A stretch of 64,000 bases of DNA from Dehalococcoidia bacterium (GTDB lineage Bacteria; Chloroflexota; Dehalococcoidia; DSTF01; JACRBR01): assembly GCA_040902505.1 (NCBI GenBank), contig JBBDXE010000032.1, forward strand, positions 261,158 to 325,157, read 5' to 3'. The notes beneath the pieces were generated by a model that saw only the letters and a list, made by a program, of their open reading frames with translations, was not told the origin of the DNA and did not search any database. Below, piece by piece: positions 18,881 through 60,005 of this stretch. Position numbers and translations under genes: made by a program. Position 1 is the first letter of the stretch; each line of letters starts with the position of its first letter.

Positions 18881-20059
18881 TCAGGCCGCCGGGCGATCGA
18901 GGAGCGATAGGAACAGCTCCTCCATACGGAGCATCTGCGTCTCGTTGAGCCCGCGCTCCTCCACGATGCGGCGATTCGCCTCCGCCGCCCGCCGCCGCAG
19001 CTCCGGATCGGCCAGCGCTCGCTCGATAGCCTCGGCGAGGCAACTGGAGCAGTGCAGGGGCACCCGGAAGCCGTTCACGCCGTCCTCGACCAGCTCCCGC
19101 TGCGTCGGCAGGTCCGAGACGATGGGGAAACACCCCACCGCCATCGCCTGCAACAGGGCAACCGATGTCCCGTCTGACGACGGCACGGAAACGAAGACCT
19201 CCGCATCGCTGAGCGCGTCGCGGAACGCCGCCTGGTCGAGGAAGCCCGCGAACCCCACGCGGCCACCGAGCGGCGCGGCGCGGCGGTGCAACTCCTCCGC
19301 CTCCGGCCCGCCGTGCGCGACGACGAGCCGCGTGTCTTCGATGTTCTCCGCCAGCGCGACGGCATCAATGATTTCGCCGACGTTGTACAACGCCTCGTGA
19401 GCGCGGGTGCTGATCACGGCCGGCGTCCGTCCCGGCTCCGGCGGACGCACGTTCACCGAACGCTCCCACGCGTCGAGGAAGAAGCGGTCGGCACCCAGCG
19501 TGACGACGTGGACTCGGTCGCGAGGCGCCCCCAGCGCCACGATCCGCTCCGCCATGTACGCGTTGTTCGACGTCAGCAAGTCAGCGCTCCGGGCCACGCG
19601 CCGTGCGATCATCCCCGACGCCAGGTCCCGCGACGGCTCGACGAGCACGTCCGAGCCCCACGCCGTCACCACGTACGGGTGGAAGCGCGCCGCCATCCCG
19701 TAGAAGCCGTGCTCGACCAGGAAGTGCGCGTGAAGCACGTCCGGCGCAATCTCCCTCACGACGCGCCGCAGCCCCGCCCTCCAGTACCGGACGGCGTGCA
19801 CGAGCCTGATTGCGCCGCGCGGCACCCGACTTGGCGCGGAGCGCCGCGCTGCCGCGCCACCGCTGCTCCGCCGTCCCGGCCGCAGCACGTGCAGCGTCAC
19901 GCCGTCGATCGGCTCGCGGGGCTCGTAGTAGCTGATGGCGTGCAACTCGTGGCCGCGGTCAATGAACCAGCGCAGCCAGGAGCGCGTGTGCACGCCGTCG
20001 AAGTCGCCGAGCACGGCGATGCGCAGCCGCCGCTCCGGCGGTACCCGCTCGACGCTCAC
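18881..20059 (-). CDS. glycosyltransferase family 4 (GT1/GT4 fold)
   Basis: 392 aa with GT-B fold features and the E-x7-E region near the C-terminus. 4-nt overlap with the upstream flippase gene. Confidence 0.7.
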   Translation of the reverse strand: MSVERVPPERRLRIAVLGDFDGVHTRSWLRWFIDRGHELHAISYYEPREPIDGVTLHVLRPGRRSSGGAAARRSAPSRVPRGAIRLVHAVRYWRAGLRRVVREIAPDVLHAHFLVEHGFYGMAARFHPYVVTAWGSDVLVEPSRDLASGMIARRVARSADLLTSNNAYMAERIVALGAPRDRVHVVTLGADRFFLDAWERSVNVRPPEPGRTPAVISTRAHEALYNVGEIIDAVALAENIEDTRLVVAHGGPEAEELHRRAAPLGGRVGFAGFLDQAAFRDALSDAEVFVSVPSSDGTSVALLQAMAVGCFPIVSDLPTQRELVEDGVNGFRVPLHCSSCLAEAIERALADPELRRRAAEANRRIVEERGLNETQMLRMEELFLSLLDRPAA

Positions 20060-21420
20060 GACCGGCCCGCCTCCGCCCGCCCCCGGCTGATACGAGCGAG
20101 CGCGCCGCGAAGGGCGTCACCGTAGAGCCGGCCATCGGCGGGACGAGGGATCACCGCCTCCAGCACGGGCTGGCCGGAGATCCGCCCGTAGGCGTACAGG
20201 GCCGCGGCGAAGTGCGCGCCGTACGCGAGCGAGCTGGCAGCAGCCGCGCCGTTGACGCCGAAGACGGGGATCAGCGCGAAGTCGGCGACGAGCGTCACCA
20301 CGAGCGAGACAGCGGTGATGCCGGTGTTCACCAGCGGACGCCCCCGGCTGAAGATGTAGCTGGTGAGCACCTTCGAGCCGCAGAGAGCGACCGTGCCGGG
20401 AAGCAGCCACCACAGCGCGTCCACCGATCGCTCGAACTCATCGCCGAAGACACCCGGCACGAGCACGGGTGCAACCACAGCCAGCCCCACCGCACCGCCC
20501 GCCGCCACCAGCAGCATGTTCCGGCAGGCGACCGGCGTCATCCACGCGACGTCGTCGGCGTCCGCCGACGTGAGCCGCGGCATCAGCACCAGCGCCACGG
20601 CGTTCGCCAGCACGAACAGCGCCTCCGTCATCGACGCCCCCACCGCATAGACGCCGACGGCCGCGAGGCCCGCAAAACCGCGCACCAGGTACTGGTCGAA
20701 TCGGTAGTTCAGCGCCTGCAACACGTTCCCTGCCTCGCCCTGCGCGCCGAAGTGGATCAGCCGGCGCAGCACGTCCCACCGCGGACGGACGATCTGCGTC
20801 ACGTCGATGTTCGAGACGCCGATGCGGAACAACGCGAACAGCCCCGCCGCCACGCTCGCGGCGATGAAGTAGCCGACGATCTCCTCAGGCGAGGGGTCGC
20901 CGACCGCGAACGCAACGGCTACGGCGGCGAGCAGGAGGGCCTGCTGCCCGATCGTCGTGATCCCCAGGTCGACGAAACGGCTGAGGGCCTGCAGGACCAA
21001 CCGCAGCAGGTTCAGGTAGAGCAGCGCCGGCACGGCGAGGATGAACAGCCAGGGCGCGATCCCGTCGCCGAACGCCCGCCCTGCGGCCCAAGGGGCCACG
21101 ACCGCGACGGCGAGAGCGCTCACAGCGAGCGACCCCAGCGTCGCGAGGTGCACCGCGCTGACCACGTCCCGCAGCGCCACCTCGCGACGGTTCAGGTAGT
21201 AGATCGCCGCATTGCCGATCCCCAGCCCCAGCACCAGCTGCCCCAGCGCCGTCGAGAGGATGAAGATGCCATAGGCGCCCCGCCCCTCATCGCCCAGCGC
21301 GCGGGCGACCAGCGCCGCCGTCGCGAACGCCAGCAGCCCGTCGACGGCGTAGGTCACGACGACCACGTTCACGCTCTCGAGGAAGCTCTTGCGAGTGGTC
21401 GCTTCGGAGGCGGGCTGCAT
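20056..21420 (-). CDS. polysaccharide/oligosaccharide flippase (Wzx-like, MOP superfamily)
   Basis: 454 aa, polytopic (about 12 to 14 TM) with a polysaccharide-biosynthesis-protein pattern. Confidence 0.65.
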   Translation of the reverse strand: MQPASEATTRKSFLESVNVVVVTYAVDGLLAFATAALVARALGDEGRGAYGIFILSTALGQLVLGLGIGNAAIYYLNRREVALRDVVSAVHLATLGSLAVSALAVAVVAPWAAGRAFGDGIAPWLFILAVPALLYLNLLRLVLQALSRFVDLGITTIGQQALLLAAVAVAFAVGDPSPEEIVGYFIAASVAAGLFALFRIGVSNIDVTQIVRPRWDVLRRLIHFGAQGEAGNVLQALNYRFDQYLVRGFAGLAAVGVYAVGASMTEALFVLANAVALVLMPRLTSADADDVAWMTPVACRNMLLVAAGGAVGLAVVAPVLVPGVFGDEFERSVDALWWLLPGTVALCGSKVLTSYIFSRGRPLVNTGITAVSLVVTLVADFALIPVFGVNGAAAASSLAYGAHFAAALYAYGRISGQPVLEAVIPRPADGRLYGDALRGALARISRGRAEAGRS

Positions 21421-21481
21421 CAGGTGATTCTATCCGCGAGGAGGTCGCCGAACGCGCGTGAAGGGCGAGACGAGCCTCGCT

Positions 21482-22777
21482 CTAGGGCGCCCTCGCGAGC
21501 GACTGGACCGCCTCAAGCTCCGCCGCCATGCGCTGATCCCACGTCCAGAAATGCTCGCGGGCATGGGAGGCGGCGGCACCGGCGAGGCGATGGCGCTGCG
21601 CGGGGTCGCCGGCGAGCGACACCAGCAGGTCCGCCAGGCGCTCCTCCAGCGGCCGCGCAACGCCCGACCGCTGCGAGGTGTCGACCAGCCGCCCGGTGAC
21701 GCCGTCGGCGATGAGGTCGCGCGTGTCGCCGGCATCGACCGCGACAATGCACATCCCGCAGGCCATCGCCTCGAGCAGCGGGTTGCCGACGTTCGACAGG
21801 TCGGCGACGGCCAGGAAGACGTCCGCCGCGTGCATGTAGCGCATCACGTCGGCCTGGGGCACCGCCCCCACGAAGCGCACCGCCGACGCCACGCCCACCT
21901 CGCGGGCGAGCGCCTCCAGCCGCGCCCGCTCCTCTCCGTCGCCGACGACGAGCAGCAGCGCTTCGCCGACCCAGGACTTGATGCGGGGGAGGGCGCGGAT
22001 CGCGCGGTCGACCCGCTTCCATGCCGCCAGCCGCGACGCCGTCAGCATCACCAAAGCATCGTCGCGCAGCCCGAGCGACGCCCGCGCAGTGGTGCGATCT
22101 TCGGGAGACGCCGGGCGCAACCGATCCATGTCCAGCCCGTTCCGCCAGAACTTCACCCGCCCCTTCGACGCGGGGTTCAGCCGCGCCAGTACCTCGTCAC
22201 CCCGCGTGCCGTCGTCGGTCATGATGCAGAGGTCCGCGCGGGTCTTCAGTGCCAGCACCTCCTCGTAGCGCCGGTAGTAGAGCAGCGTGTCGTTGAGCGC
22301 CGGGTGCATCACTGTGCCCTGGAAGCGCGTCACCAGCGACAGCCGGTAGCCACGGCGCCGCAGCAGGCGCGCCGCCAGCACGCCGTGCACCTCGTAGCCG
22401 TAGGTCACGTCGTAGGGCTCGGGCGCGTGACGAAGCAGCTCCTCCGCGCGACGCGCCGCCAGCCACGGGAACGCCAGCGCGAAGCGAAGCTTCTGGTCGA
22501 CCGCTGCGACCGGACCCGGCAGCGATGGCAGCGGCACATCGCGCAACGACGGCAGGTGGAACGTGTGGAACGTGACGCCCGGGGTCCGCGGACGGTCCTC
22601 CGGTGTCGCGCCCGGGCGCTTCGGGTCGTAGAAGTGGTTCGCCCCGACGTCCGGCATCACGACGTCGAGACGATGTCCGGCTTCGCCGTAGGCGCGCAGC
22701 GTGCGTTCGAGGGTCGGCGCGCCCTTCCCCCGGTCAAGCGACCACACGTCGAGCGCGCAGAGCATCAGGATGCGCAT
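21482..22777 (-). CDS. glycosyltransferase family 4
   Basis: 431 aa with GT4 signatures (C-terminal GT-B domain with VGxGxxR...ADVFLAVADLSNVGNPLLEAMACG). Confidence 0.7.
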   Translation of the reverse strand: MRILMLCALDVWSLDRGKGAPTLERTLRAYGEAGHRLDVVMPDVGANHFYDPKRPGATPEDRPRTPGVTFHTFHLPSLRDVPLPSLPGPVAAVDQKLRFALAFPWLAARRAEELLRHAPEPYDVTYGYEVHGVLAARLLRRRGYRLSLVTRFQGTVMHPALNDTLLYYRRYEEVLALKTRADLCIMTDDGTRGDEVLARLNPASKGRVKFWRNGLDMDRLRPASPEDRTTARASLGLRDDALVMLTASRLAAWKRVDRAIRALPRIKSWVGEALLLVVGDGEERARLEALAREVGVASAVRFVGAVPQADVMRYMHAADVFLAVADLSNVGNPLLEAMACGMCIVAVDAGDTRDLIADGVTGRLVDTSQRSGVARPLEERLADLLVSLAGDPAQRHRLAGAAASHAREHFWTWDQRMAAELEAVQSLARAP

Positions 22778-49898: not shown

Positions 49899-51230
49899 TT
49901 ATCTCCCTCCGAACATGTTCAGGAATCCGGAACGGCCGCTGGCGAAGCCCTGCATGATCTTCTTCGCCTCTTTCCACTGGTTCAGCAGCCGGTTGACCTC
50001 CTGGGGCGTGGTGCCGCTCCCCGCGGCGATCCGGCGGCGGCGGCTTCCGTTGATGATCTCCGGGTGCTTGCGCTCCTCCGGCGTCATAGCGTACACGACA
50101 GCCTCGGCTCGTTTCCAGAAGTCGTCATCCAGGCTGTCCGTGTTGAGCTGGCGCTTCATCTGGGAGACGCCGGGGAGCATCTCGACGAGCTGGTTCAGGG
50201 GCCCCATCTTCTTAATGCGCTGGAACTGCAGGAGGAAGTCCTCCAGGTCCAGCGTCTTGGCCTTCATCTTCTTCTCGATGGCCTGGACGTCCTGCTCGCT
50301 GATGGCGTCCTTGGCCCGCTCGATCAAGCCCAGCATGTCGCCCATGCCGAGGATGCGCGAGGCGAAGCGGTCGGGGTAGAAGGGTTCGAGCGCGTCGGCC
50401 TTCTCGCCGGTGCCGATGAACTTCACGGGCAGACCGGTAACGGCGCGGATCGAGAGCACGGCGCCGCCGCGGGCGTCGCCATCCATCTTCGAGACGACGA
50501 TGCCCGTCACGCCGAGCTGCTCGTGGAACTGCTGGGCGACGTTCACGGCTTCCTGTCCGGTCATGGCGTCGAGCACCAGGATGACTTCGTTCGGGTTGAG
50601 GGTGCTGCGCATCGCGGACACCTCGGCCATCATCTCCTCGTCGATGGTCGAGCGGCCGGCGGTATCGACGATGACGACGCTGGCGGCCTGCCGCTTCGCC
50701 TCGCCGAGGGATGCGGCGCAGAGGTCGGTGAGCTTCTGTTGATCCTCGCCCTGGAAGACGGCCATGTTGAGCTGCTTGCCCAGGGAGCGGAGCTGCTCGC
50801 CGGCGGCCATGCGGTAGGGGTCGGCGGCGACGAGCAGCGGCTTCTGCCCCTGCTTTCGCATGTGCAGGCCGAGCTTCGCGGCGGTGGTGGTCTTGCCGGA
50901 GCCCTTCAGCCCGACGAGCATGATCACCGTGGGCGCCTTCGAGGCCAGCTGGAGCGTCGAGGGGCTGCCGCCGAGGATGCCGACCAGCTCCTCGTTGACG
51001 ATGCCGATGACCTGCTGGGGGCCGGTGAGGCTCTTCAGCACCTCGCCGCCGAGCGCGCGTTCGCGGACGGAGGCGATGAACTGGCGGACGACCTTGAAGT
51101 TGACGTCGGCTTCGAGCAGCGCGATGCGGACCTCGCGCATGGCTTCGTCGAGGTCCTTTTCGGAGATGGTGCCGCGAGACCCGAGCTTCTGGAAGACGCC
51201 CGAGAGTTTGTCACTGAGGGCTTCGAGCAT
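49899..51230 (-). CDS. ffh: signal recognition particle protein Ffh
   Basis: NG domain (GLKGSGKTTTAAKL, DTAGR) and M domain (Met-rich). Stop is 2 nt before the rpsP start. Confidence 0.95.
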   Translation of the reverse strand: MLEALSDKLSGVFQKLGSRGTISEKDLDEAMREVRIALLEADVNFKVVRQFIASVRERALGGEVLKSLTGPQQVIGIVNEELVGILGGSPSTLQLASKAPTVIMLVGLKGSGKTTTAAKLGLHMRKQGQKPLLVAADPYRMAAGEQLRSLGKQLNMAVFQGEDQQKLTDLCAASLGEAKRQAASVVIVDTAGRSTIDEEMMAEVSAMRSTLNPNEVILVLDAMTGQEAVNVAQQFHEQLGVTGIVVSKMDGDARGGAVLSIRAVTGLPVKFIGTGEKADALEPFYPDRFASRILGMGDMLGLIERAKDAISEQDVQAIEKKMKAKTLDLEDFLLQFQRIKKMGPLNQLVEMLPGVSQMKRQLNTDSLDDDFWKRAEAVVYAMTPEERKHPEIINGSRRRRIAAGSGTTPQEVNRLLNQWKEAKKIMQGFASGRSGFLNMFGGR

Positions 51231-51313
51231 AAGCGCTGTATTGTATCATCAGACCAGACTGCAGACTGCTCGGCCAGTGGCCCTTGCACGCAGAGCCGTA
51301 CGTGAGGATGGCC

Positions 51314-51541
51314 ATGACAAGAACGATTTACCTGACAGCGGTCATCGAGAGGGAGGGCGACGGTTACGTCGCGCCCTGCCCTGAACTCGACATCGCCAGT
51401 CAGGGCGACTCGGTGGATGAGGCGCGAAGCAACCTGGTCGAGGCGCTCGAAGGGTTCTTTGCGGTTGCGAGTCAGTCAGAAATTCGCGAGAGCCTGCCCA
51501 CGGAGATGTATGTAGAACGGCTCGAACTGGCCATTGGGTAG
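51314..51541 (+). CDS. hicB: HicB family antitoxin (UPF0150 fold)
   Basis: MTRTIYLTAVIEREGDGYVAPCPELDIASQGDSVDEARSNLVEALEGFF matches the HicB N-terminal domain. ATG 51314 lies 5 nt after GAGGA. The six-frame ORF begins at TTG 51284. Confidence 0.7.
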   Translation: MTRTIYLTAVIEREGDGYVAPCPELDIASQGDSVDEARSNLVEALEGFFAVASQSEIRESLPTEMYVERLELAIG

Positions 51542-51567
51542 GCTGCGCGTTCTTTTCCGGCAGAGAC

Positions 51568-51755
51568 GTGCGGCGAATCCTGGAACAACACGGCTTTGTC
51601 TTCGCCCGTCAGCAGGGCAGTCACATGATGATGCTCCGTCAGGTGGGCGAGAGCACTATTACCGTTTCCGACCTGACCATCGAGAACTGCGCGCGGGTAC
51701 GCTCAGGGCGATCATCAAACGGTCGCGCCTTCAGCGCGAACTGTTCGAGGAATAG
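51568..51755 (+). pseudogene. hicA: HicA toxin gene disrupted by a frameshift
   Basis: The N-terminal half of HicA (RRILEQHGFVFARQQGSHMMMLRQVGESTITV) reads from GTG 51568. The conserved C-terminal half (HRELRAGTLRAIIKRSRLQRELFEE, stop 51755) is in another frame. The junction near 51672-51690 (ccgacctgaccatcgag) looks like a 5-nt insertion. Confidence 0.6.
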
Positions 51756-51831: not shown

Positions 51832-52653
51832 TCAAGACGGGACACTGGCGACGAAGAGCGAGCGCCGGAGCAGCCCTGCCTCGATTGCGGCGACGCCCTT
51901 CCGGCGGTCCCTCTGCCGCTCTTCGTAGCGGACATCTCCTTCGAGGCCGCGCATCCCTGCCTCGTGGCGCAGGTTCGCCTCGAGGTACGCGCGGGCGATG
52001 CGCAGGTACTCCGCGGTCACGTCCGCTTCCTCCATGGCGGTGAACCCGGCCGCGCGCAGCAGGTCGCCCTGGTCGAGGCGCGATGCCACCGCCGGCGGCC
52101 CCGCGTCGACGGCGCGCCGGCGGCCGGCCGGCGACAGGCCCGGCGCCACGAAGATCGTGTAGAAGGCCATGCGTCCGCCCGGGCGGAGGAGACGCCTGCA
52201 CGTCTTCAGCACGGCGAGCTTCGGACGCAGGCAGCACAGTACGTCGGTGTGCACGACGCGGTCGAACGAGCGGGAGCGAAACGGCTGAGCCTGGCCGCTG
52301 GCCACGACGCACGCACTGCGACGGGAGATCCCGGCTGCGGCGGCCCGCTGGGCGGCCTTCCGCATCGCCGGCACCGGCACGTCGGTGAGTACGACGTTAC
52401 AGCCCGTCTTCGATGCGAGGTAGAGCCCCGGCCAGCCAAGCCCGGCACCGAGGTCGAGCAACGCCATCCCGCCCCGCAGGTCAAGCGCGGGGGCCAATGT
52501 GTCGGCCTGCGCCGGGGTGGTGTAGCCGCTGACCCCCGTGGACGCGCCCATCACGTCGAGCTCGACCGCCTGCATCGCGGGAGCGCCCGCCAGCTCGTAC
52601 CAGGCAGCGAATGTCTGGACGCACTCGGTGTCACGCTCGCACGCGCGCGTCAT
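51832..52653 (-). CDS. class I SAM-dependent methyltransferase
   Basis: ATG 52653 follows GGGGAGG. Motif I is LLDLGAGLGWPGLYLA, with a post-I acidic residue and motif II. The remainder of the longer six-frame ORF is rejected. Confidence 0.7.
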   Translation of the reverse strand: MTRACERDTECVQTFAAWYELAGAPAMQAVELDVMGASTGVSGYTTPAQADTLAPALDLRGGMALLDLGAGLGWPGLYLASKTGCNVVLTDVPVPAMRKAAQRAAAAGISRRSACVVASGQAQPFRSRSFDRVVHTDVLCCLRPKLAVLKTCRRLLRPGGRMAFYTIFVAPGLSPAGRRRAVDAGPPAVASRLDQGDLLRAAGFTAMEEADVTAEYLRIARAYLEANLRHEAGMRGLEGDVRYEERQRDRRKGVAAIEAGLLRRSLFVASVPS

Positions 52654-52699
52654 CGAACCTCCCCGGCCGTGACAGCACCGGGCGCCGGCGAACCCGACG

Positions 52700-55600
52700 C
52701 TAGCGGGCCGTGGCGCTCGCCCGCTCCAGCTCCTCGTCCGGAATGACGTGCCAGATCTGGACGCCGGGGTTCTGGTACGCCAGTTCCAGCGCCCCGCTGA
52801 GGCCATCGTCGAACTTCTCCAGCCCGCCCTCGGAGTAGTAGTTGCGCTCGACGTCGCCGACGATCACCCATTCGACGCCGTATTTCTGCAGGATGTCGCG
52901 GGCCTGCTGCACGTCGCCCGTGTCGTAGAACTGGTTCACGTCGGCCTTGCGGGCCTCGACGGTCTGGGCGAACTTCACGCGCTGCTGCGCCTGATGCCAG
53001 TCCCAGCCGAGGACGGTCGGTAGGCCTGTGTAGATCGCGAAGCGGCTGCCGAAGTGGTAGATGCCGGTCACCGCCTCGATCGTCGTGGGGGTGCCGTCGA
53101 TGTTCGCCCGCATCCAGTTGATGGCGTCCCGGGTGGAGGCGAAGTCCGTCTCGCCGCCGCGGCCGCTGCGGTCGTCGAAGTCGACGTACGCCGCCCTGGG
53201 GCTGTCCATGTAGTCCATGCCGTTGATCCCGGTGCCCTGGGCGGGGTCGAAGCGCTCGTGCAGGCGGGCGCGCGTGCCGACATAGGGGAAGACCAACGTC
53301 AGCGCGAGCAGCACCGCGGCCAGGGTGGCGAAGGCGAAGCGCGGCGCGCGCACCATCGACGCGTCGAGGGAGCCGACGCGCTGGAAGAACGCTTCCTGGG
53401 GGCGCATGACGGCGAAGATGTACCAGAGCGCGTAGGCGCCGGCGACGCCCCAGAGGATCCACACGTGCAGGTAGAACTTGAACACGGTGTTCATGCGCCC
53501 GATATCGCCGTCGAGGGTGAGCAACTCCACGCCGCCGGTGAGGCCAAGGCCGAGCGCGATCATCGCGTAGACGAAGAGCAGGACGGGAGCGGAGGGGGCG
53601 GGGCTGCGGACCGCGCGGTAGGCCGCCAGCAGGACGGCCATAAGCCCCACGAGGGAGAATACGGTCACGCCCCAGCGCTGCATGGTGCCGGCCCACACCA
53701 GGACTCCGCCGGCGGCGATGAGCGCGAGCATGACCGGGGCGGTCTCGATGGGGCGGCGGCGCCCGCGGCCGAAGAAGATCATCCGGGTGAGCCAGGCACG
53801 CGTGATCACGCGGTTCAGCTGGAAGACCACCAGCCCGCCGATGAGGAAGAGCAGCACGCCGAAGTGGCTGAGGAAGTCGCCGAGGGCCGACGTCTGCTCC
53901 GACTGGCTGACGCCGGCGTACGCCTGGTTGTAGTTGGCGATGAAGGGGGCGAAGAACACGAAGCTCAGGCCCACCATCACGAGCGACTTGAAGGCGCCGA
54001 CGCCCAGGCCACGCAGAGTGACGCGGCCGTCCTTCGCGCGTTCGGCGACGAGGATCGCCCCGGCGCCGAGCAGCAGGAACGGCGGGTAGTCCCAGGAGTT
54101 GATCCAACGCAACGCGCCGACGATCAGCGCCAACACGACGACCATCAGCCAGCTGGCGATCTCGCGGGAGCGGGCATCGGCGCGGGCGAGCCGCGTGAAG
54201 TTCGTGACGGCGCCGAATGCCACGGCGGCGGCCGTGATCGCGAAGGGGATGGCCATCAGATGGGCGTGCAGGTCGGCGAAGAGGAACGTCCAGTACGGGA
54301 ACTCAGTGATCGGCAGCACCTCGCCGGGCTCGTTCGTGCTGACCGCCCGGCTGGGCTCCCACCAGTTGTAGCCGTAGACGAACTCCCGGAGTGAGACATC
54401 TCCGACGGCGACTTCCTTGAGCGCACCGGCTATGGTGAGCGCCCCGCCGATCATCGGCACGCCGTCGCCCCATGAGCTGTAGCGCGAAGCCGTGACCTGC
54501 AGTTCCGAGAGCGCGTTGAGGTTCCCCGCGATGAGCACGAGGAAGACGCCGGCAAGCCCGGCGACGATCGGGCCGGCGACGCCGATCGGCAGGCCGCCAG
54601 GGCGGCGCTTCATGAGCCGCCGCGTCGTCTCGGCGAGGTTGTAGGTGAGCGAGAAGACCGCGGCCGCCGAGAGCGCGAAGAACATCGGCACAAGCAGGTT
54701 GTAGGCGACTTCTGGCACGATGCCGGTGAGCTTCACGAAGGTCCCGGAGATGAACTGGCCATAGTAGTAGTAGTTCAGGTAGCCGTCGGCGTACCAGGGG
54801 TCGATGGCGCCCTGAGTCATGTCGGTCGTGCGGATGACGCCGTTCAGATAGGCGAGTTCCATCGGCTTCTCGCCGCCGCGCGATCCGTGCCAGAGGTCGG
54901 GGTTGTGGAGCCGCAGCCAGAACGCGAAGAGGAACGCCAGCAGGAAGAGCGCCTCGGCGAAGAGCAGGAAGCGCCAGCGCTCGCGGACGAACGCCGAGAT
55001 CTCGTCGCGCCAGCGCCACGCCCCGAGCGCGCCGGCGGCGACCAGCACGAGCATCGCGGCGACGATCCAGCCGCGGGTGAAGTCCGTGATGCCCTGCGTC
55101 GCCGGCGCGTACACGAGGTACGAGAGCGCCAGCACGCCCAGTGGCTTCGAGAGCAGGAAGCCGCGGTCGGGCAGGGCACGGAAGAGCACGATCGCCAGGG
55201 GCGCCACGGCGAACGCGGCCAGCTCGATCGCGAACAGCCACACCAGCAACGGGTGCTGGTTCGCGAAGCTCGATGCGTCGAAGATATCGGTCCAGGTGCC
55301 GCCGGCATGTTGCCGCGCCCGCACGTTCGGTGTGAAGAGCAGTCCGTTCTGCGCGGCGTCCTTCGGGAGGATGCTCATCCCGGGCAGGAAGGCGTCGACG
55401 CCCAGCACCTCCCGCGCGCGCTCGACGGAGAACGCGTCGGTCTTCTTGTAGACCGTGACCTTCGGGTGGTCGTACACCGAGTACGACTCCTCGGCGCCGG
55501 TGTCGTCCAGCTCGAAGCCGAAGATCGACGGGTACGAAGTGAACTCGGCGGCCTTCTCGAACCCCAGCTCGCCGGACTCGAGGGCTTCGTAGTAGCGCGA

Positions 55601-57421
55601 GGTCACGGGCCAGACCGCGGGCACGCGCGGGATCGTCCCCGAGAGGCGGGCGCTGCTGAGCGCGATGTAGTCGACGGCGTCGAGGTTGGAGATCAGCTGC
55701 TCGGCGTGTTCGGGCGTATCGCCGTCGTAGTTGTTGAAGGTGACGCTGCCGAACTGGCGCGGGGGGACGCCCTGCACGGTGAACGGCACTTCGTCGTCCC
55801 AGTGCTCGTGACCGACGACGGCGCCCGCCTCGACGTTCGCGTGGAACCATCTCGACGCGGCGAAGCGGGTCACCTCCTGCGTATAGATGTGGTAGAACGC
55901 CAGCCCCATCAGGAGCGTCATCAGCACGACCACGCCGACGCCCGCGCGCGTCGCGTAGGAAAGGCTCGCGCGCGCGGGCGCCAGACGTTCGCCGAATCGG
56001 CCAAACGCCGCCAGCGGGGCGCCGTCCGACCCCCACTGCCAGGCGCGATAGAGCAGCGCCGCGCCGAGGACGGTCAGCGTCGGATAGAGCGGCAGGAAGT
56101 ACCGCATGTAGAGCGAGAACTGCGCGCCCATGAAGCCGAAGTAACCCAGGACCCAGGCCAGCGGCACCAGCCACACGCCCTCCCGCCGGCGGACGGCCCA
56201 GAACGCCGCGAAGGCCACACCGAGCCAGGCGGTCACGCCGAGCGCCGGGCCCATGCCCCAGGCCATCATCTGCTGGGCGGGCCAGAGCCACTTCGAGCGG
56301 CCGATCCACTGCACGTTCGGCGGGAAGGCGCCCCCGCCGAGCAGTTCTCGCTGCTTCACCTGATCGTCCAGCCACTGCTGGTTCATGATGTCGGGGTAGA
56401 CGAGCGGAACCTTCAGGACGGTGCCCTCGGTGGGCGTGACCACGTCCGTCAGGCTCGGCGTCTTGAACGCGTAGGGCATGGCGAGGCGGAAGACGAGGAA
56501 CGCCGCTACCAGCGCCAGCATCGAGCCGAGGAAGAACGTCGCGACGGCGGAGTCGAGCCGATGGCCGTCCTGCTGGCGGTCGTACTCCCGGCGCGGGCCG
56601 TACCACCAGGGCGCGACGAAGGGCTTGACGCCGGGCCAGGCGCGCACACCGATCGCGAGGACGACGACGGGGAGCAGCGAGACGGCGGTGATCTTCGTCG
56701 CGGCGGCGAGCCCGGCACAGGCGCCCGCGAGGGCGAAGTTGCGCCAGCCTCCCGACTGCGCCGACCGCACGGCGTAGTAGATCGCGCCGGTGGCGAAGAA
56801 GGTGAGGAACGGGTCGACGACGAAGAAGTGGGCGTTCTGGATCGGGAACGCCGAGACCGCGTAGAGGAACGCCGCCAGCAGTCCCACGCCTCGCGAGACC
56901 AGCGCCCGTCCGAGGAGGAAGACGAAGATGATCGTGCCAAGGTCAAACAGGGCAGCCAGCGCGCGGCCGCTCAGGTTGTAGTGGTCGTAGTTGTCGTAGT
57001 TGTCGAGCGTCCCGAGGGAGAGGGTGTGGAGGTTGGTGGCGACGAACTTGTTCAGGAAGAGCGGCAGCGTGCCGTAAACGAACGTCCCCTGGCGGCTGCC
57101 GTCGTCGCGCTCGATGTTGTAGGGGTTGAGGGCGGAGGTGTCGGTATCGAAGTAGTTGGCGATGCTGCTCGGTGCGCGGATGTCGCCGCTGATCGAGGTG
57201 ATGAAGCGTTCGTCCGGGTGGAGGTGGCCGGTGTTGTCCCAGTTGAGGTGGTTGAGTCGCAGGAAGCCGGCCAGCAGCAGGATGCCGGCCAGGGCGAGGA
57301 TGGTGGCCGCGCGGCTCCACTCCCCCGCGAACACGTCGAGGCGCAGGCTGGGGATGACCCGGCCGGGAGCGGCGGGCGCAGCCGCGGTCTGGCTCTGGAT
57401 CCGGGAGACTTCTTCTCTCAT
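52700..57421 (-). CDS. DUF2298 / Chlor_Arch_YYY-domain giant polytopic membrane protein with N-terminal GT-C (PMT/ArnT-like) glycosyltransferase module
   Basis: 1573 aa with at least 25 predicted TM segments. HPDERF (a DE-type motif) sits in the first extracytoplasmic loop. GYLNYYYYGQF is the tyrosine run that gives the Chloroflexi/Archaea YYY domain its name. Soluble regions are large. Confidence 0.65.
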   Translation of the reverse strand: MREEVSRIQSQTAAAPAAPGRVIPSLRLDVFAGEWSRAATILALAGILLLAGFLRLNHLNWDNTGHLHPDERFITSISGDIRAPSSIANYFDTDTSALNPYNIERDDGSRQGTFVYGTLPLFLNKFVATNLHTLSLGTLDNYDNYDHYNLSGRALAALFDLGTIIFVFLLGRALVSRGVGLLAAFLYAVSAFPIQNAHFFVVDPFLTFFATGAIYYAVRSAQSGGWRNFALAGACAGLAAATKITAVSLLPVVVLAIGVRAWPGVKPFVAPWWYGPRREYDRQQDGHRLDSAVATFFLGSMLALVAAFLVFRLAMPYAFKTPSLTDVVTPTEGTVLKVPLVYPDIMNQQWLDDQVKQRELLGGGAFPPNVQWIGRSKWLWPAQQMMAWGMGPALGVTAWLGVAFAAFWAVRRREGVWLVPLAWVLGYFGFMGAQFSLYMRYFLPLYPTLTVLGAALLYRAWQWGSDGAPLAAFGRFGERLAPARASLSYATRAGVGVVVLMTLLMGLAFYHIYTQEVTRFAASRWFHANVEAGAVVGHEHWDDEVPFTVQGVPPRQFGSVTFNNYDGDTPEHAEQLISNLDAVDYIALSSARLSGTIPRVPAVWPVTSRYYEALESGELGFEKAAEFTSYPSIFGFELDDTGAEESYSVYDHPKVTVYKKTDAFSVERAREVLGVDAFLPGMSILPKDAAQNGLLFTPNVRARQHAGGTWTDIFDASSFANQHPLLVWLFAIELAAFAVAPLAIVLFRALPDRGFLLSKPLGVLALSYLVYAPATQGITDFTRGWIVAAMLVLVAAGALGAWRWRDEISAFVRERWRFLLFAEALFLLAFLFAFWLRLHNPDLWHGSRGGEKPMELAYLNGVIRTTDMTQGAIDPWYADGYLNYYYYGQFISGTFVKLTGIVPEVAYNLLVPMFFALSAAAVFSLTYNLAETTRRLMKRRPGGLPIGVAGPIVAGLAGVFLVLIAGNLNALSELQVTASRYSSWGDGVPMIGGALTIAGALKEVAVGDVSLREFVYGYNWWEPSRAVSTNEPGEVLPITEFPYWTFLFADLHAHLMAIPFAITAAAVAFGAVTNFTRLARADARSREIASWLMVVVLALIVGALRWINSWDYPPFLLLGAGAILVAERAKDGRVTLRGLGVGAFKSLVMVGLSFVFFAPFIANYNQAYAGVSQSEQTSALGDFLSHFGVLLFLIGGLVVFQLNRVITRAWLTRMIFFGRGRRRPIETAPVMLALIAAGGVLVWAGTMQRWGVTVFSLVGLMAVLLAAYRAVRSPAPSAPVLLFVYAMIALGLGLTGGVELLTLDGDIGRMNTVFKFYLHVWILWGVAGAYALWYIFAVMRPQEAFFQRVGSLDASMVRAPRFAFATLAAVLLALTLVFPYVGTRARLHERFDPAQGTGINGMDYMDSPRAAYVDFDDRSGRGGETDFASTRDAINWMRANIDGTPTTIEAVTGIYHFGSRFAIYTGLPTVLGWDWHQAQQRVKFAQTVEARKADVNQFYDTGDVQQARDILQKYGVEWVIVGDVERNYYSEGGLEKFDDGLSGALELAYQNPGVQIWHVIPDEELERASATAR

Positions 57422-57618
57422 TCGGTCGAATCGCCGGAGTGCGGGGTGCGGATCACGCCTGGAGTCTCAGTAATATAGCAGTTGTTCTTATGTCACAGCC
57501 GCAGATACGGATGCGCTCCTACGCCCGATAGAACGCAGTCCCGTGGCCTGCGATACACCTACGCACACCGGGCTGGGACGGATGATCCTGTACCGAGACC
57601 CCTGACAAGAGAAGATGC

Positions 57619-59139
57619 CTAGCCTTCGACGGGGCGGTCGCGCATCGGGCCGGGGCGGGGCCGCTCCGTGCTGTCGGGGGCGGCGGCGTGCGCGCCCATG
57701 GTGCCGGGCAGCGTGAACCGGAAGGTCGTGCCGCCGCCCGGGCGAGCCTCGGCGCTGATCTCGCCGCCGTGGGCGCGCACGATCTCGCGGGAGATGGCCA
57801 GACCGAGCCCGCTGCCGGGCTGGGCGGCCTCCGCGCCTTCGCCGCGATAGAAGCGGTCGAACACGTGCGGCAGGTCGTCCGCCGGGATGCCCTCGCCGTC
57901 GTCCGAAACGTACAGCTCGACGAAGGCGGCGGCGCCCGCGCGCGCGCCAGCCTCGATGCGGCCGCCGCGCGGAGTGTGGCGGAAGGCGTTATCGAAGAGG
58001 TTGCCGAGGACCTGCTCGATGCGGTCGAAGTCGGCGGTGCAGGTTGCGGCGAGGGGCGCGGCGGCGACGGCCAGCGTCACGCCGGCCTCTTCGGCGCGGC
58101 GCGCGAAGACGTCGCCCACGTGCGCCAGCAGCTCGGGCAGTCGCACCTCCGCCAGCTCCATGCGCTGCTGCCCGGACTGGATCCGCGAGAGGTCGAGCAG
58201 CTCCTCGACGAGGTGGAGCACGCGCCGGGACTCGGCGTCGATGACGCGGGCGGCGCGGGCGCGCTCGTCGGGGCTCTCGAGGGTGCCGTCGAGCATCGCC
58301 TGCGAAAAGCCGCGGATCGACGTGAGGGGCGTCTTCAGCTCGTGGGAGACGTTGGCCAGGAAGTCGCGCAGTGTGCGCTGCGACGCTTCGACGGAGTCGG
58401 CCATGCGGTTCACGTCGGCGGCGAGGGTGCGCACTTCGGACGGGCCCTCGACGGGCACGCGCTGGCGATAGTCGCCGCCGGCCACGGCGCGGATGCCGCC
58501 CGTAACCTTGCGCAGCGGAGGGTAGAGCGATCCGAGCAGCACGCCACCGACGACCACCGCGGCCAGCCCGCCGACGATAGCGGCGAAGGTGAGGCGCGGG
58601 AGCAGATCGCCCCAGACGTCGCGGCGGGAGGTCTCGGGCATGGCGATCACGATCGACGCGATGCCGCCGGGCAGCGCGCGGACGGCGCGGGTGGTGGGGA
58701 CGGTGACGTACACCAGGTCCTGTCCGTCGCTCGTGGTGTGGCGGTTGAGGGCCAGCTCCTCGAACTGGGGGCCGAGCTGGGGCGCGGCGGGGACGCCGAA
58801 CCGCTCGTCGAGGAGGGCGGCGTCGGTGGTGCTCTCCGGGATCACGCGGCCGTTGGCGTCGATGAGCAGCACGATGACGCCGGAGTTCTCGCGCTGCAGC
58901 TCGAGGTACTGCGTCAGCTCGCTGCGCAGCTGCCGCGCCGGGGCGGGGACGCCGGGCTGGGCGGAGAAGAGCGTAAGGTTGTAATAGATGGGCGAGGCCA
59001 CCTGACGCAGCGTCGTCTCGGTGAGGTCGTCGCGGTAGCTGCCGAGCCGCGCGAACAGCGCCACGGCGGCGGCGAACAGCGTCACCAGCACGATGAGCGC
59101 GAAGGATGCGACGAGGCGGAAGCGGAGACTTCGGAACAC
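57619..59139 (-). CDS. sensor histidine kinase (HisKA + HATPase_c)
   Basis: GTG start after GGGGGAG. Two TM segments flank a periplasmic domain. H-box HELKTPLTSIRGF, with N, G1 and G2 boxes (GLGLAISREIV). Confidence 0.85.
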   Translation of the reverse strand: MFRSLRFRLVASFALIVLVTLFAAAVALFARLGSYRDDLTETTLRQVASPIYYNLTLFSAQPGVPAPARQLRSELTQYLELQRENSGVIVLLIDANGRVIPESTTDAALLDERFGVPAAPQLGPQFEELALNRHTTSDGQDLVYVTVPTTRAVRALPGGIASIVIAMPETSRRDVWGDLLPRLTFAAIVGGLAAVVVGGVLLGSLYPPLRKVTGGIRAVAGGDYRQRVPVEGPSEVRTLAADVNRMADSVEASQRTLRDFLANVSHELKTPLTSIRGFSQAMLDGTLESPDERARAARVIDAESRRVLHLVEELLDLSRIQSGQQRMELAEVRLPELLAHVGDVFARRAEEAGVTLAVAAAPLAATCTADFDRIEQVLGNLFDNAFRHTPRGGRIEAGARAGAAAFVELYVSDDGEGIPADDLPHVFDRFYRGEGAEAAQPGSGLGLAISREIVRAHGGEISAEARPGGGTTFRFTLPGTMGAHAAAPDSTERPRPGPMRDRPVEG

Positions 59140-59153
59140 GGGCGCTCCCCCGG

Positions 59154-59849
59154 CTACGCGGCGGGCTCCTCGACGAGCTTGTAGCCGACGCCACGGACGG
59201 TCATGATGCTGATCCCCGAATCGCCGAGCTTCGCGCGGACGTGCTGCACGTGCACGTCGACTGTCCGCGTCTCGCCGTAGAAGTTGTAGCCCCACACGCG
59301 GTCCAGCAACGCCTCGCGCGTCAGCACGATGCCGGCGTTCTCGGCGAAGGCGGCGAGCAGGTCGAACTCCTTCGCGCGCAGGGGGAGGTCCTGTCCCGCC
59401 AGCTTGACCTCGCGGCGCTGCCGGTCGATGGCCAGCTCGCCGACGCGAATCACCTGTCCGGCGGGCTTGTCGTGCGCGCCATCGGCGCGGCGCAGCACGG
59501 CCTTCACGCGCGCCACCAGCTCGCGGGGGTTGAACGGCTTGGTGAGGTAGTCGTCGGCGCCCAACTCCAGCCCGACGATCTTGTCGACGTCCTCATCGCG
59601 GGCGGTGAGCATGATGATGGGGACGTTGCTGCTTTCGCGGACGGCGCGGCAGACGTCGTAGCCGCTCATGCCCGGCAGCATCAGGTCGAGGATGATAAGA
59701 CTCGGCTGCTCCCGGGCGATGGTCTCGACGGCGGACGTGCCATCGACGGCACAGGCGACCTGGAAGCCCTCCTTCTCGAGGTAGAGCGAAGCCAGCTCGC
59801 GGATGTGCGCGTCGTCGTCGACGATGACCACTTTGGCTGCGGCTGGCAT
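59154..59849 (-). CDS. OmpR-family response regulator
   Basis: ATG 59849 follows GGAGGAG. Receiver domain (VVIVDDD...D...K) and winged-helix output (RVWGYNFYGETRTVDVHV). Confidence 0.85.
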   Translation of the reverse strand: MPAAAKVVIVDDDAHIRELASLYLEKEGFQVACAVDGTSAVETIAREQPSLIILDLMLPGMSGYDVCRAVRESSNVPIIMLTARDEDVDKIVGLELGADDYLTKPFNPRELVARVKAVLRRADGAHDKPAGQVIRVGELAIDRQRREVKLAGQDLPLRAKEFDLLAAFAENAGIVLTREALLDRVWGYNFYGETRTVDVHVQHVRAKLGDSGISIMTVRGVGYKLVEEPAA

Positions 59850-60005
59850 GTGCGGCTCCTCCGGGGCTGGCCCTTGCCTGCCCGTAAGTATCGTCGCCGG
59901 TGGTGGAGATTCGGGGGACAAGTCTTTGTAAAACGCGTGTGAAATCGCCGCAAAGCGAGAGGGGCGCCCGAGTGGCGCCCTTCTCCAGCCATGACCCGGC
60001 GGAGC

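Follow-up and report, generated by a model that had tools for sequence, protein, structure and literature searches.

Locus and gene

A single open reading frame, which starts with ATG and encodes a membrane protein of 1573 amino acids, occupies positions 52700 to 57421 on the minus strand of the window (the whole stretch of 64,000 nucleotides analyzed here). The features of the locus are as follows.

57422..57618, minus strand: leader of 197 nt, 58.9% GC (window, 68.7%)
52700..57421, minus strand: gene for the fusion protein, with PMT_2-like and Chlor_Arch_YYY/DUF2298 modules (ORF, Pfam and NCBIfam matches)
52654..52699, minus strand: 46-nt spacer from the glycosyltransferase stop to the methyltransferase start, containing GGGGAGG
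51832..52653, minus strand: class I SAM methyltransferase, 273 aa (Methyltransf_11/25/12 matches)
51284..51755, plus strand: HicB-like gene and HicA-like frame split over two frames (UPF0150 match, ORF translations)
49899..51230, minus strand: ffh (SRP54; TIGR00959, 572 bits), the conserved downstream neighbor in several close relatives

The 1573-aa protein is a real gene product and not a mis-joined frame. It is 100% identical to the NCBI entry [quoted passage not shown], which lies on a contig of 620,697 bp. The homologues found at NCBI number more than 600 in total, and most of the >100 listed at 41 to 66% identity cover 96 to 100% of the length. The GC3 of the gene (0.94) is like that of adjacent genes. 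The giant ORF proposed in the first-pass annotation, which had itself raised the possibility of a misjoined frame, is thus upheld.

The protein is an ordinary member of an already known, uncharacterized family, a type that is common among Chloroflexota bacteria. Most of the 120 homologues listed have the same PMT_2 and DUF2298 make-up and a length of 1465 to 1700 aa, and, of the 150 top-scoring library representatives, 114 reach 1343 aa or more, with the YYY part starting from about residue 620 to 970. At 50% identity, the family comprises 6454 representatives with an E value of ≤0.001 (1944 with an E value of ≤1e-30), and relatives are present in at least 542 species genomes; a homologue is also encoded by Thermoflexus hugenholtzii (L068), a cultured species. 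Searches of the literature on DUF2298, TIGR03662, YYY, and GT-C surveys found two incidental mentions and no characterization or experimental study, in agreement with the earlier description of the family as essentially uncharacterized. Literature matches to “YYY domain” concern the unrelated Y_Y_Y domain and were discarded.

Two fused GT-C modules

The chain is a fusion of two different GT-C modules and not a single YYY domain. Module 1 (N-terminal, aa 1 to 723) is PMT_2/ArnT-like and carries HPDERF, while module 2 (C-terminal, aa 724 to 1573) is the YYY/DUF2298 module and carries YYYYG. The first-pass annotation had noted HPDERF and the YYYY run in one protein; both are present, but they belong to separate fused modules rather than to one domain. 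In both modules, the first outward loop contains invariant acidic residues and an extracytoplasmic domain forms the end.

55886..57340, minus strand: module 1 membrane part, aa 28 to 512, 11 transmembrane (TM) helices, PMT_2/ArnT-like GT-C core
57203..57220, minus strand: HPDERF, aa 68 to 73, first extracytoplasmic loop of module 1, after TM1
55253..55885, minus strand: module 1 extracytoplasmic alpha/beta domain, aa 513 to 723 (AF2 secondary structure, residue composition, conservation)
53300..55252, minus strand: module 2 membrane part, aa 724 to 1374, 16 TM helices, YYY/DUF2298
54860..54904, minus strand: NPDLWHGSRGGEKPM, aa 840 to 854, first outward loop of module 2, candidate catalytic acidic motif
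54758..54772, minus strand: YYYYG signature of module 2, aa 884 to 888
54260..54310, minus strand: ITEFPYWTFLFADLHAH, aa 1038 to 1054, outward loop, candidate metal or phosphate site
54089..54100, minus strand: NSWD, aa 1108 to 1111, short outward loop of module 2
53477..53506, minus strand: DIGRMNTVFK, aa 1306 to 1315, outward loop leading into a TM helix
52703..53299, minus strand: module 2 C-terminal extracytoplasmic domain, aa 1375 to 1573 (199 residues)
52979-53008, minus strand: GWDWHQAQQR, in the module 2 C-terminal extracytoplasmic domain

Profile searches confirmed the YYY/DUF2298 membership that had been proposed. TIGR03662 (Chlor_Arch_YYY) scored 491.2 bits (cutoff, 300.25) over aa 725 to 1559 (model positions 5 to 726 of 727), and PF10060 (DUF2298) gave an E value of 4.2e-99 (333.1 bits; gathering threshold, 27.8) over aa 767 to 1324 (profile positions 3 to 488 of 488). 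The GT-C character of the protein was likewise borne out, by the structure models described below and by matches of aa 148 to 257 to PMT_2 (E value of 1.6e-10; 41.8 bits against 26.1; profile positions 22 to 129 of 160) and PMT (E value of 2e-9; 37.8 bits against 22.7; profile positions 81 to 197 of 245).

An internal duplication was considered and rejected, as the hhalign probability was 4.6% when the membrane parts of the two modules were compared and 2.2% when their soluble domains were. Judged by sequence comparison, the modules did not arise by a recent duplication and have no detectable similarity to each other. In some relatives (L019 and L028), a second DUF2298 copy is joined to the same chain, and in others it is a separate gene downstream.

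Topology, structure models, and conserved residues

About 27 TM helices were counted in the whole protein from AlphaFold helices and hydropathy, where dozens had been claimed. Module 2, with 16 of them in aa 724 to 1374 and its 199-residue C-terminal domain, agrees with the strongly hydrophobic polytopic region of about 700 to 900 residues that typifies Chlor_Arch_YYY. K+R account for 25 of 130 residues (19%) in the short loops placed inside, compared with 2 of 58 (3%) in those placed outside; the modeled topology is consistent with the positive-inside rule. With the exception of LPDRG (aa 750 to 754), the invariant polar motifs all lie on the side assigned outside.

Structural modeling had been proposed for the N-terminal ~500 aa; here the two halves of the protein were modeled separately with AlphaFold (AF2) from a 34-sequence alignment, and both models were confident (pLDDT of 84.5 each; pTM of 0.84 and 0.90). 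Compared with the PDB, the models of both halves matched GT-C enzymes only, and a Foldseek search with the C half agreed. Both halves have the GT-C fold, whose hallmarks are a conserved bundle of helices at the N terminus and a long first extracytoplasmic loop. The best whole-chain matches were ALG12, ArnT, AglB, PMT, STT3, AftA, and DPY19. PDB profile searches with the full alignment, the C-terminal domain, and a subregion gave no sequence link to solved structures and chance matches only; matches to Plasmodium triosephosphate isomerase (via YVIVGxxER) and to TAF4 were dismissed as such.

Conservation was assessed in 66 near-complete relatives of 28 to 64% identity and, for the motifs of module 2, also in 14 DUF2298 paralogues that stand alone. 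The near-complete relatives show no variation at the acidic and histidine positions of either module. In module 1, the acidic PMT/ArnT-like motif HPDERF lies in the first loop, as had been reported, and is immediately preceded by W61-D62; D62, D70, and E71 are kept in all 63 aligned members. The extracytoplasmic domain of this module is acidic in composition (30 D+E compared with 15 K+R), and its conserved positions include the invariant W541, acidic residues at 542 and 543, and D651-H652-P653.

In the NPDLWHGSRGGEKPM loop of module 2, P841, D842, L843, and G849 to M854, and hence both D842 and E851, are kept in 66/66 members; among the stand-alone paralogues, position 842 is acidic in 13/14 and E851-K852 is present in all 14. 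The YYYY run held to be typical of the YYY domain proved to be YYYYG, which matches the YYYxG motif: N883, Y884, Y885, and G888 are kept in every member, and the YYY and G of the signature are kept in 14/14 paralogues. The ITEFPYWTFLFADLHAH loop, placed outside by the topology count, contains E1040, D1050, H1052, and H1054, all of which are retained in the 66 members and the 14 paralogues. Conservation of NSWD is slightly lower among members (N1108 in 66/66, W1110 in 63/66, and D1111 in 61/66), with retention in 14/14 paralogues. D1306, R1309, N1311, T1312, and K1315 of DIGRMNTVFK are kept in all 66 members. We infer from sequence position, and not from superposition, that D70 and D842 lie in the active-site pocket.

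Comparison with known systems

Among fusions of Chlor_Arch_YYY/DUF2298 to PMT_2, nothing is structurally different in the source protein. ArnT (GT83) is the undecaprenyl-phosphate-L-Ara4N:lipid A transferase, and module 1 resembles it in having a PDExR[YF] motif just past TM1 (HPDERF here and WQPDETRY in Escherichia coli ArnT), a VVDPF that aligns with VLDPF of ArnT, and a C-terminal periplasmic alpha/beta domain. In contrast, the hhalign alignment to E. coli ArnT covers only aa 169 to 252 (about 85 residues; probability, 22%), and module 1 is fused to a second GT-C. Since hhalign aligned the PMT_2 core alone and an alignment of the DE motif was not obtained in this way, the equivalence of HPDERF and WQPDETRY rests on position. 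No arn-type genes (arnC/arnE/arnF or arnBCADEF) lie near the gene in the window. By most descriptions, Chloroflexota do not have lipid A, and the acceptor must therefore differ from that of ArnT.

The protein differs from PMT (GT39) in that the core helices alone match PMT models, no MIR domain, a trait of that family, was matched in the 1573 aa even at an E value of ≤10, and a protein acceptor is here putative. It differs from the GT66 enzymes (AglB, PglB, and STT3) in that neither half matches STT3 (PF02516) at an E value of ≤10, profile searches found no sequence-level relation to module 2, and there is no exact WWDYG; GWDWH is found in the C-terminal domain of module 2. In mycobacteria, a single wall polysaccharide is the product of several GT-C enzymes, the Emb and Aft arabinosyltransferases, but these have no sequence relation to the present protein, in which no carbohydrate-binding modules were detected.

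Three-component extracytoplasmic systems, e.g., Gtr and the GT136 system, consist of a polyprenyl-phosphate sugar synthase, a flippase, and a GT-C (PMC11127046). The expected logic is shared: production of a lipid-linked donor in the cytoplasm would be followed by flipping and by its use outside by the GT-C (PMC11127046). In Anaerolineae-type loci, the gene lies among further PMT_2 and GT4 genes, with a flippase-like LPG_synthase_TM gene and a sugar epimerase/dehydratase gene, and these distant clusters with their flippase-like and cytoplasmic GT genes fit the pattern of lipid-linked donor, flippase, and GT-C (PMC11127046); no GT2-type synthase was identified in related clusters. The copy here is without the multi-GT-C cluster, which was either lost or never acquired. 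In the window, neither a gene for a polyprenyl-phosphate sugar synthase nor one for a flippase adjoins it, the sole glycan genes (GT4, Wzx-like, and GT4) being 30 kb away, and two or three GT-C modules are fused in this family rather than one standing alone.

Downstream methyltransferase

The SAM methyltransferase gene lies, as first noted, 46 nt downstream on the same strand. Its product has no visible TM segment in its 273-aa sequence, and no NCBIfam model matched it above its own cutoff. GGGGAGG, 5 nt ahead of the ATG, is a strong ribosome-binding site of its own, and no terminator-like site was found in the spacer; because of the short gap and the lack of a predicted terminator, the two genes are probably cotranscribed.

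To assess the conservation of this neighborhood, 80 related loci, drawn from different species, were examined; at least 1.5 kb of downstream sequence is available for 64. In none of the 80 does an orthologue of the methyltransferase adjoin the glycosyltransferase gene. A tblastn search of these loci gave only matches of 25 to 34% identity in the SAM-binding region, all in GT4-linked genes. In relatives of 54 to 63% identity, ffh directly follows the glycosyltransferase gene, an arrangement seen in L007, L008, L009, L081, and L085. It follows after 0.5 kb in L045 and in L004, which also has HicB at the same position as here, and 3 to 4 kb downstream in L011, L013, and L014. The downstream gene in other close relatives is DinB, Wzy_C, BNR, or PRC-barrel. 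In the window, the methyltransferase and the HicB/HicA remnant together part the glycosyltransferase gene from ffh, and the remnant suggests an insertion hotspot. Measured by the best nonself identity, the methyltransferase (55 to 56%) ranks below the glycosyltransferase (66%) and ffh (84%). The three methyltransferase homologues with readable context lie among stress and detoxification genes (AhpC, OsmC, glyoxalase, and other methyltransferases), with no GT-C gene nearby. The methyltransferase is apparently a local, lineage-specific insertion and not a conserved partner of the glycosyltransferase gene.

Proposed mechanism and alternatives

We regard it as probable that the protein is a bimodular GT-C, both modules of which transfer polyprenyl-phosphate-linked sugar to one acceptor, and that the methyltransferase is an unrelated insertion; the donor type, catalysis by both modules, and the shared acceptor are what we infer. 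Modules 1 and 2 would each take a sugar from a polyprenyl-phosphate-linked donor at the outer face of the cytoplasmic membrane. The putative catalytic residues are D62 and D70-E71 in module 1 and D842 and E851 in module 2, in the first outward loops, and E1040, D1050, H1052, and H1054 of module 2 would form a likely metal or phosphate site. The two modules may act on one envelope acceptor, either a surface protein or a wall glycan, to which they would add in successive or complementary steps. The methyltransferase would be an unrelated cytoplasmic enzyme that was inserted, with the HicB/HicA remnant, before ffh in the source lineage and is probably on a shared transcript, outside the conserved machinery.

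The first-pass annotation had instead suggested a glycosylation-plus-methylation module dedicated to a methylated envelope glycoconjugate; a lipid-linked sugar might, e.g., be methylated in the cytoplasm before flipping. The shared strand, the short gap with its ribosome-binding site, and the lack of a terminator-like site would suit this arrangement, and in 20 of the 80 loci, all distant, a different Methyltransf_11 gene occurs in the giant GT-C cluster together with a GT4 gene (it directly follows GT4 in 17 loci, and the two are fused in L077, L062, and L035). Nevertheless, the 80 loci without an adjoining orthologue, the position of ffh or a variable gene directly downstream in the closest relatives, the identity of the methyltransferase homologues below that of both neighbors, the occurrence of these homologues away from GT-C genes, and the adjacent HicB/HicA remnant all count against a dedicated module, which we consider improbable and do not find supported. 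It is also unlikely, if somewhat less so, that sugar transfer is the task of PMT_2 alone. In this alternative, one of the modules (most probably YYY/DUF2298) would have the GT-C fold but act as a scaffold, a polymerase, a ligase, or a subunit that binds the substrate, in the way of PIG-U in the GPI transamidase or of Wzy/WaaL-type enzymes. Module 2 has no sequence-level match to any solved GT-C, and a Wzy_C ligase-like gene lies directly downstream in one close relative. However, its invariant acidic residue stands a few residues past the TM helix that opens the first outward loop, as in catalytic GT-C enzymes, the invariant E/D/H/H cluster is on the same side, and the best whole-chain structural matches are active transferases.

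Module 2 could also be an oligosaccharyltransferase (OST) of the STT3/AglB type, which would move a preassembled glycan from polyprenyl diphosphate to surface proteins while module 1 adds single sugars. AglB (AfAglB) and STT3 rank near the top of the whole-chain Foldseek matches, the GT4 and flippase-like genes of the distant loci could build and flip an oligosaccharide, and the outward C-terminal domain of module 2 resembles the globular core of AglB. We hold this to be doubtful, to about the same degree as the methylation module, as module 2 has no STT3 Pfam match and the lone STT3 match, in the relative P0107, lies within module 1, where it overlaps PMT_2. Profile matches to the AglB domain reached only E values of 0.19 and 1 and were not seen again in a second search. 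The small periplasmic alpha/beta domain of ArnT is also described as resembling that of OSTs, and the domain match may therefore be unspecific. A related and similarly improbable reading takes the YYY/DUF2298 module for an unrecognized, highly diverged relative of STT3/AglB. It is suggested by the AglB-like C-terminal core, by GWDWH in the place of WWDYG, and by I-T-E and D-x-H-x-H as an outward metal site; GWDWH and the I-T-E of an outward loop presumably recall the WWDYG and TIxE of OSTs. If this were true, the fusion to a PMT/ArnT-like module would be a dedicated surface-protein glycosylation machine of Chloroflexota, and the relationship of a family with thousands of members to OSTs would have been missed because no sequence method links the two.

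The window itself offers little beyond one more copy of the family. What is added is that two distinct GT-C modules, or three in some relatives, share one chain; further, a list of residues for mutagenesis is provided, and the methyltransferase is dropped from the model. Characterization would give some concrete information on how Chloroflexota make their unusual envelope and would probably lead to a new GT family in CAZy, as was the case for GT136 (PMC11127046).

Leader and upstream region

The description of the leader as low in GC and promoter-like was correct for its GC content, which is below that of the window; a scan of 57422 to 57618 for sigma-70 consensus promoters found none, and an extended −10-like site, TGcTATATT (57480-57472), was recognized by eye. 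A role for the leader as a regulatory RNA was rejected (fold z score of 0.40 compared with shuffled sequences; no Rfam match).

Compared with other PMT_2-DUF2298 loci, the present one is distinguished by the lineage-specific methyltransferase and HicB/HicA remnant downstream and by a two-component system upstream. The latter was rejected as a conserved regulator, since a similar histidine kinase and response regulator occur in just one of the related loci (L079), neither adjoining the gene. Close relatives instead have a divergent SBP_bac_5/Opp operon upstream.

Family membership and architecture

The giant gene is a single open reading frame with an ATG start:

52700..57421, minus strand: bimodular GT-C fusion protein, 1573 residues

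Its product is a member of the TIGR03662 (491.2 bits against a cutoff of 300.25) and PF10060 (333 bits, E = 4e-99) families and of the GT-C fold class. The HPDERF motif and tyrosine run that the first-pass annotation had picked out lie at residues 68 to 73 and 884 to 888 (YYYYG). Neither outcome that the first-pass annotation had set as refuting (no HMM match, or a mis-joined frame) was seen. The ORF is not the product of a mis-joined frame, since an identical protein exists in NCBI (“DUF2298 domain-containing protein” from a Dehalococcoidia MAG) and >100 homologues are among the matches listed (41 to 66% identity, with 96 to 100% of the length covered in most). The finding is real and was correctly named; the protein belongs, as an ordinary member, to a family that is known but uncharacterized. 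This family has 6,454 representatives at an E value of ≤0.001, 114 of the best 150 being ≥1,343 aa long, and at least 542 genomes contain a relative of the giant gene. No study of TIGR03662/PF10060 was found in the searchable literature, which agrees with its earlier description as essentially uncharacterized.

The view of this product as one YYY protein holds for family membership but not for a single domain, as two modules are present. PMT_2 and PMT matches fall within residues 148 to 257 (module 1, residues 1 to 723), and the DUF2298/YYY match spans residues 725 to 1559 (module 2). Neither the two membrane parts (hhalign probability, 4.6%) nor the two soluble parts (2.2%) were related when compared by hhalign; internal duplication is therefore ruled out in favor of a fusion of two distinct families. 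Confident AlphaFold2 models of residues 1 to 730 (pLDDT 84.5, pTM 0.84) and 715 to 1573 (pLDDT 84.5, pTM 0.90) were compared with known structures. The N-terminal half scored 26.3 with STT3B, 26.3 with ALG12, 25.6 with AglB, 25.3 with ArnT, and 24.6 with Pmt2, and the C-terminal half scored 15.3 with ALG12, 13.5 with ArnT and AglB, 13.4 with Pmt4, Pmt2, and STT3B, and 12.9 with AftA; Foldseek ranked DPY19, AfAglB, STT3, and AftA highest for the C-terminal half.

Predicted active sites

Helices taken from the AlphaFold2 models, with hydropathy from sequence, give a total of 27 transmembrane segments (11 + 16). With the N terminus set inside, lysine and arginine make up 25 of 130 residues in short inside loops versus 2 of 58 in short outside loops. 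On this topology, the two soluble domains lie outside, as do almost all of the invariant polar residues. Conservation was assessed in 66 near-complete relatives (28 to 64% identity) from 80 species loci. In module 1, D62, D70, and E71 are kept in 63/63 sequences aligned at those columns, and D203 is kept in 62 relatives and replaced by E in 3. In module 2, P841-D842-L843, G849-M854, N883-Y884-Y885, G888, E1040, D1050, H1052, H1054, N1108, D1306, R1309, N1311, and K1315 are present in all 66, and W1473 and H1476 in 63/63. This module 2 set is retained in 14 stand-alone DUF2298 paralogues encoded by neighboring genes, 13 of which have an acidic residue (D or E) at position 842. Judged by residue position and conservation, both modules look like working GT-C active sites. 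Only one strongly conserved motif, LPDRGxLLxKP (residues 750 to 760; 55142-55174), is predicted to lie on the cytoplasmic side. It sits between the first two YYY-module helices and is retained in the stand-alone DUF2298 proteins too, with D752 in 13 of 14.

Module 1 is most like ArnT or PMT in its working. Escherichia coli ArnT carries WQPDETRY directly after its first helix, and its VLDPF is aligned by hhalign to VVDPF of the giant-gene protein; orthology with ArnT was nevertheless rejected on the same hhalign comparison, and a canonical GT39 enzyme is ruled out because the MIR domain is absent. For module 2, an AglB-like C-terminal domain and a GWDWH motif would point to an oligosaccharyltransferase, but this reading has a low probability, and the module was not assigned to that class because an STT3 HMM search gave no match.

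Gene neighborhood

Other features of the window are as follows.

51284-51755, plus strand: HicB-like antitoxin gene (UPF0150), then split HicA-like frame (parts 51568.. and 51534..51755)
57619-59921, minus strand: OmpR-type response regulator and HAMP-HisKA-HATPase histidine kinase, directly upstream of the giant gene
18881-22777, minus strand: GT4, Wzx-like flippase (Polysacc_synt_3), and GT4 polysaccharide group, 30 kb from the giant gene

As first annotated, the gene for a class I SAM methyltransferase (273 residues) lies on the same strand and begins 46 nt past the giant-gene stop codon; GGGGAGG precedes its ATG by five bases. The proposed coupling of glycosylation and methylation did not hold. 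A tblastn search of 80 related loci (L numbers) from 80 species genomes found no orthologue of this enzyme, and the downstream slot is variable, as close relatives carry differing genes there. ffh lies 61 to 145 nt past the giant gene in L007, L008, L009, L081, and L085 (54 to 63% identical) and ∼0.5 kb past it in L045 and in L004, where a HicB gene intervenes; DinB, Wzy_C, BNR, or PRC-barrel genes follow in other close relatives. The ffh-rpsP-KH-rimM block is also present in the window, separated from the giant gene by the methyltransferase gene and the HicB-like gene with its frameshifted HicA-like remnant. The best nonself homologue of the methyltransferase is 55 to 56% identical. The three homologues whose context could be read are surrounded by stress or detoxification genes and have no GT-C gene nearby. 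Pairing of the methyltransferase with the giant gene is not conserved.

The L004 HicB, likewise located between the giant gene and ffh, is 67% identical to that of the window; the split HicA-like frame reflects either frameshifting in a pseudogene or a mistake in the assembly. A Wzy_C O-antigen-ligase-like membrane protein gene directly follows the giant gene of one close relative (64% identity; L012:14756-16258). In L085 (16489-17939), a cytochrome P450 gene and a ferredoxin gene have been inserted between ffh and rpsP, and the surroundings of ffh look like a hotspot for insertions in this lineage.

Upstream, the 197-nt leader described as low-GC and promoter-like is indeed low in GC (58.9%, versus 68.7% for the window), but a scan for sigma-70 promoters yielded no consensus match. 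An extended −10-like site, TGcTATATT (57480-57472), was spotted by eye, the predicted RNA fold was no better than that of shuffled sequence (z = 0.40), and an Rfam search matched no family. The leader amounts to ordinary intergenic DNA and may contain the promoter. The adjacent kinase is most similar in NCBIfam to WalK-type kinases, below the cutoff, and the regulator/kinase pair is absent from that position in related loci. Among the scanned window genes, no glycan genes were found beyond the 18881-22777 group.

Glycan clusters in the wider family

In Anaerolineae-type loci (33 to 37% identity), the giant gene lies within a glycan cluster.

Genes of the Anaerolineae-type clusters
678-aa PMT_2 gene, directly upstream of the giant gene: 25 loci
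PMT_2-NHL gene, downstream: 22 loci
Stand-alone DUF2298 gene, downstream: 14 loci
LPG_synthase_TM flippase-like gene: 19 loci
Epimerase/dehydratase gene: 9 loci
GT4 gene then Methyltransf_11 gene, separate: 17 loci (L017, L019, L020, L024, L028, L038, L040, L041, L048, L049, L053, L054, L067, L069, L073, L076, L078)
GT4-Methyltransf_11 fusion: 3 loci (L077:5361-7529, L062:3544-5637, L035:14966-16975)

Two loci encode three GT-C modules in one polypeptide, with two DUF2298 stretches (L019:10001-16954, 2,318 aa; L028:10001-15943, 1,981 aa, in which an N-terminal PMT_2 match is also seen); elsewhere, the additional DUF2298 copy has its own gene downstream. Such a pattern of modular fusion argues for action of the GT-C modules in one pathway and fits the established scheme in which a lipid-linked donor and a flippase serve an extracytoplasmic GT-C enzyme (PMC11127046).

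The GT4-methyltransferase pair is recurrent and in most of these loci shares the strand of the giant gene, 0.1 to 5 kb upstream of it; L035 has the pair downstream, and in L017 and L040 it is on the opposite strand. Each of the 17 unfused methyltransferase genes matches Methyltransf_11, with an overall identity to the window enzyme of only ∼20%. In some lineages methylation may therefore be a theme, but one served by a different enzyme, linked to the cytoplasmic GT4 step.

Relatives also occur in MAGs labeled Nitrosopelagicus (an archaeon; L064), Planctomycetota (L067), Deltaproteobacteria (L044), Syntrophothermus (L021), Thermoanaerobaculia (L035), and Vulcanimicrobiota (L056), which could reflect misbinned Chloroflexota contigs or horizontal transfer.
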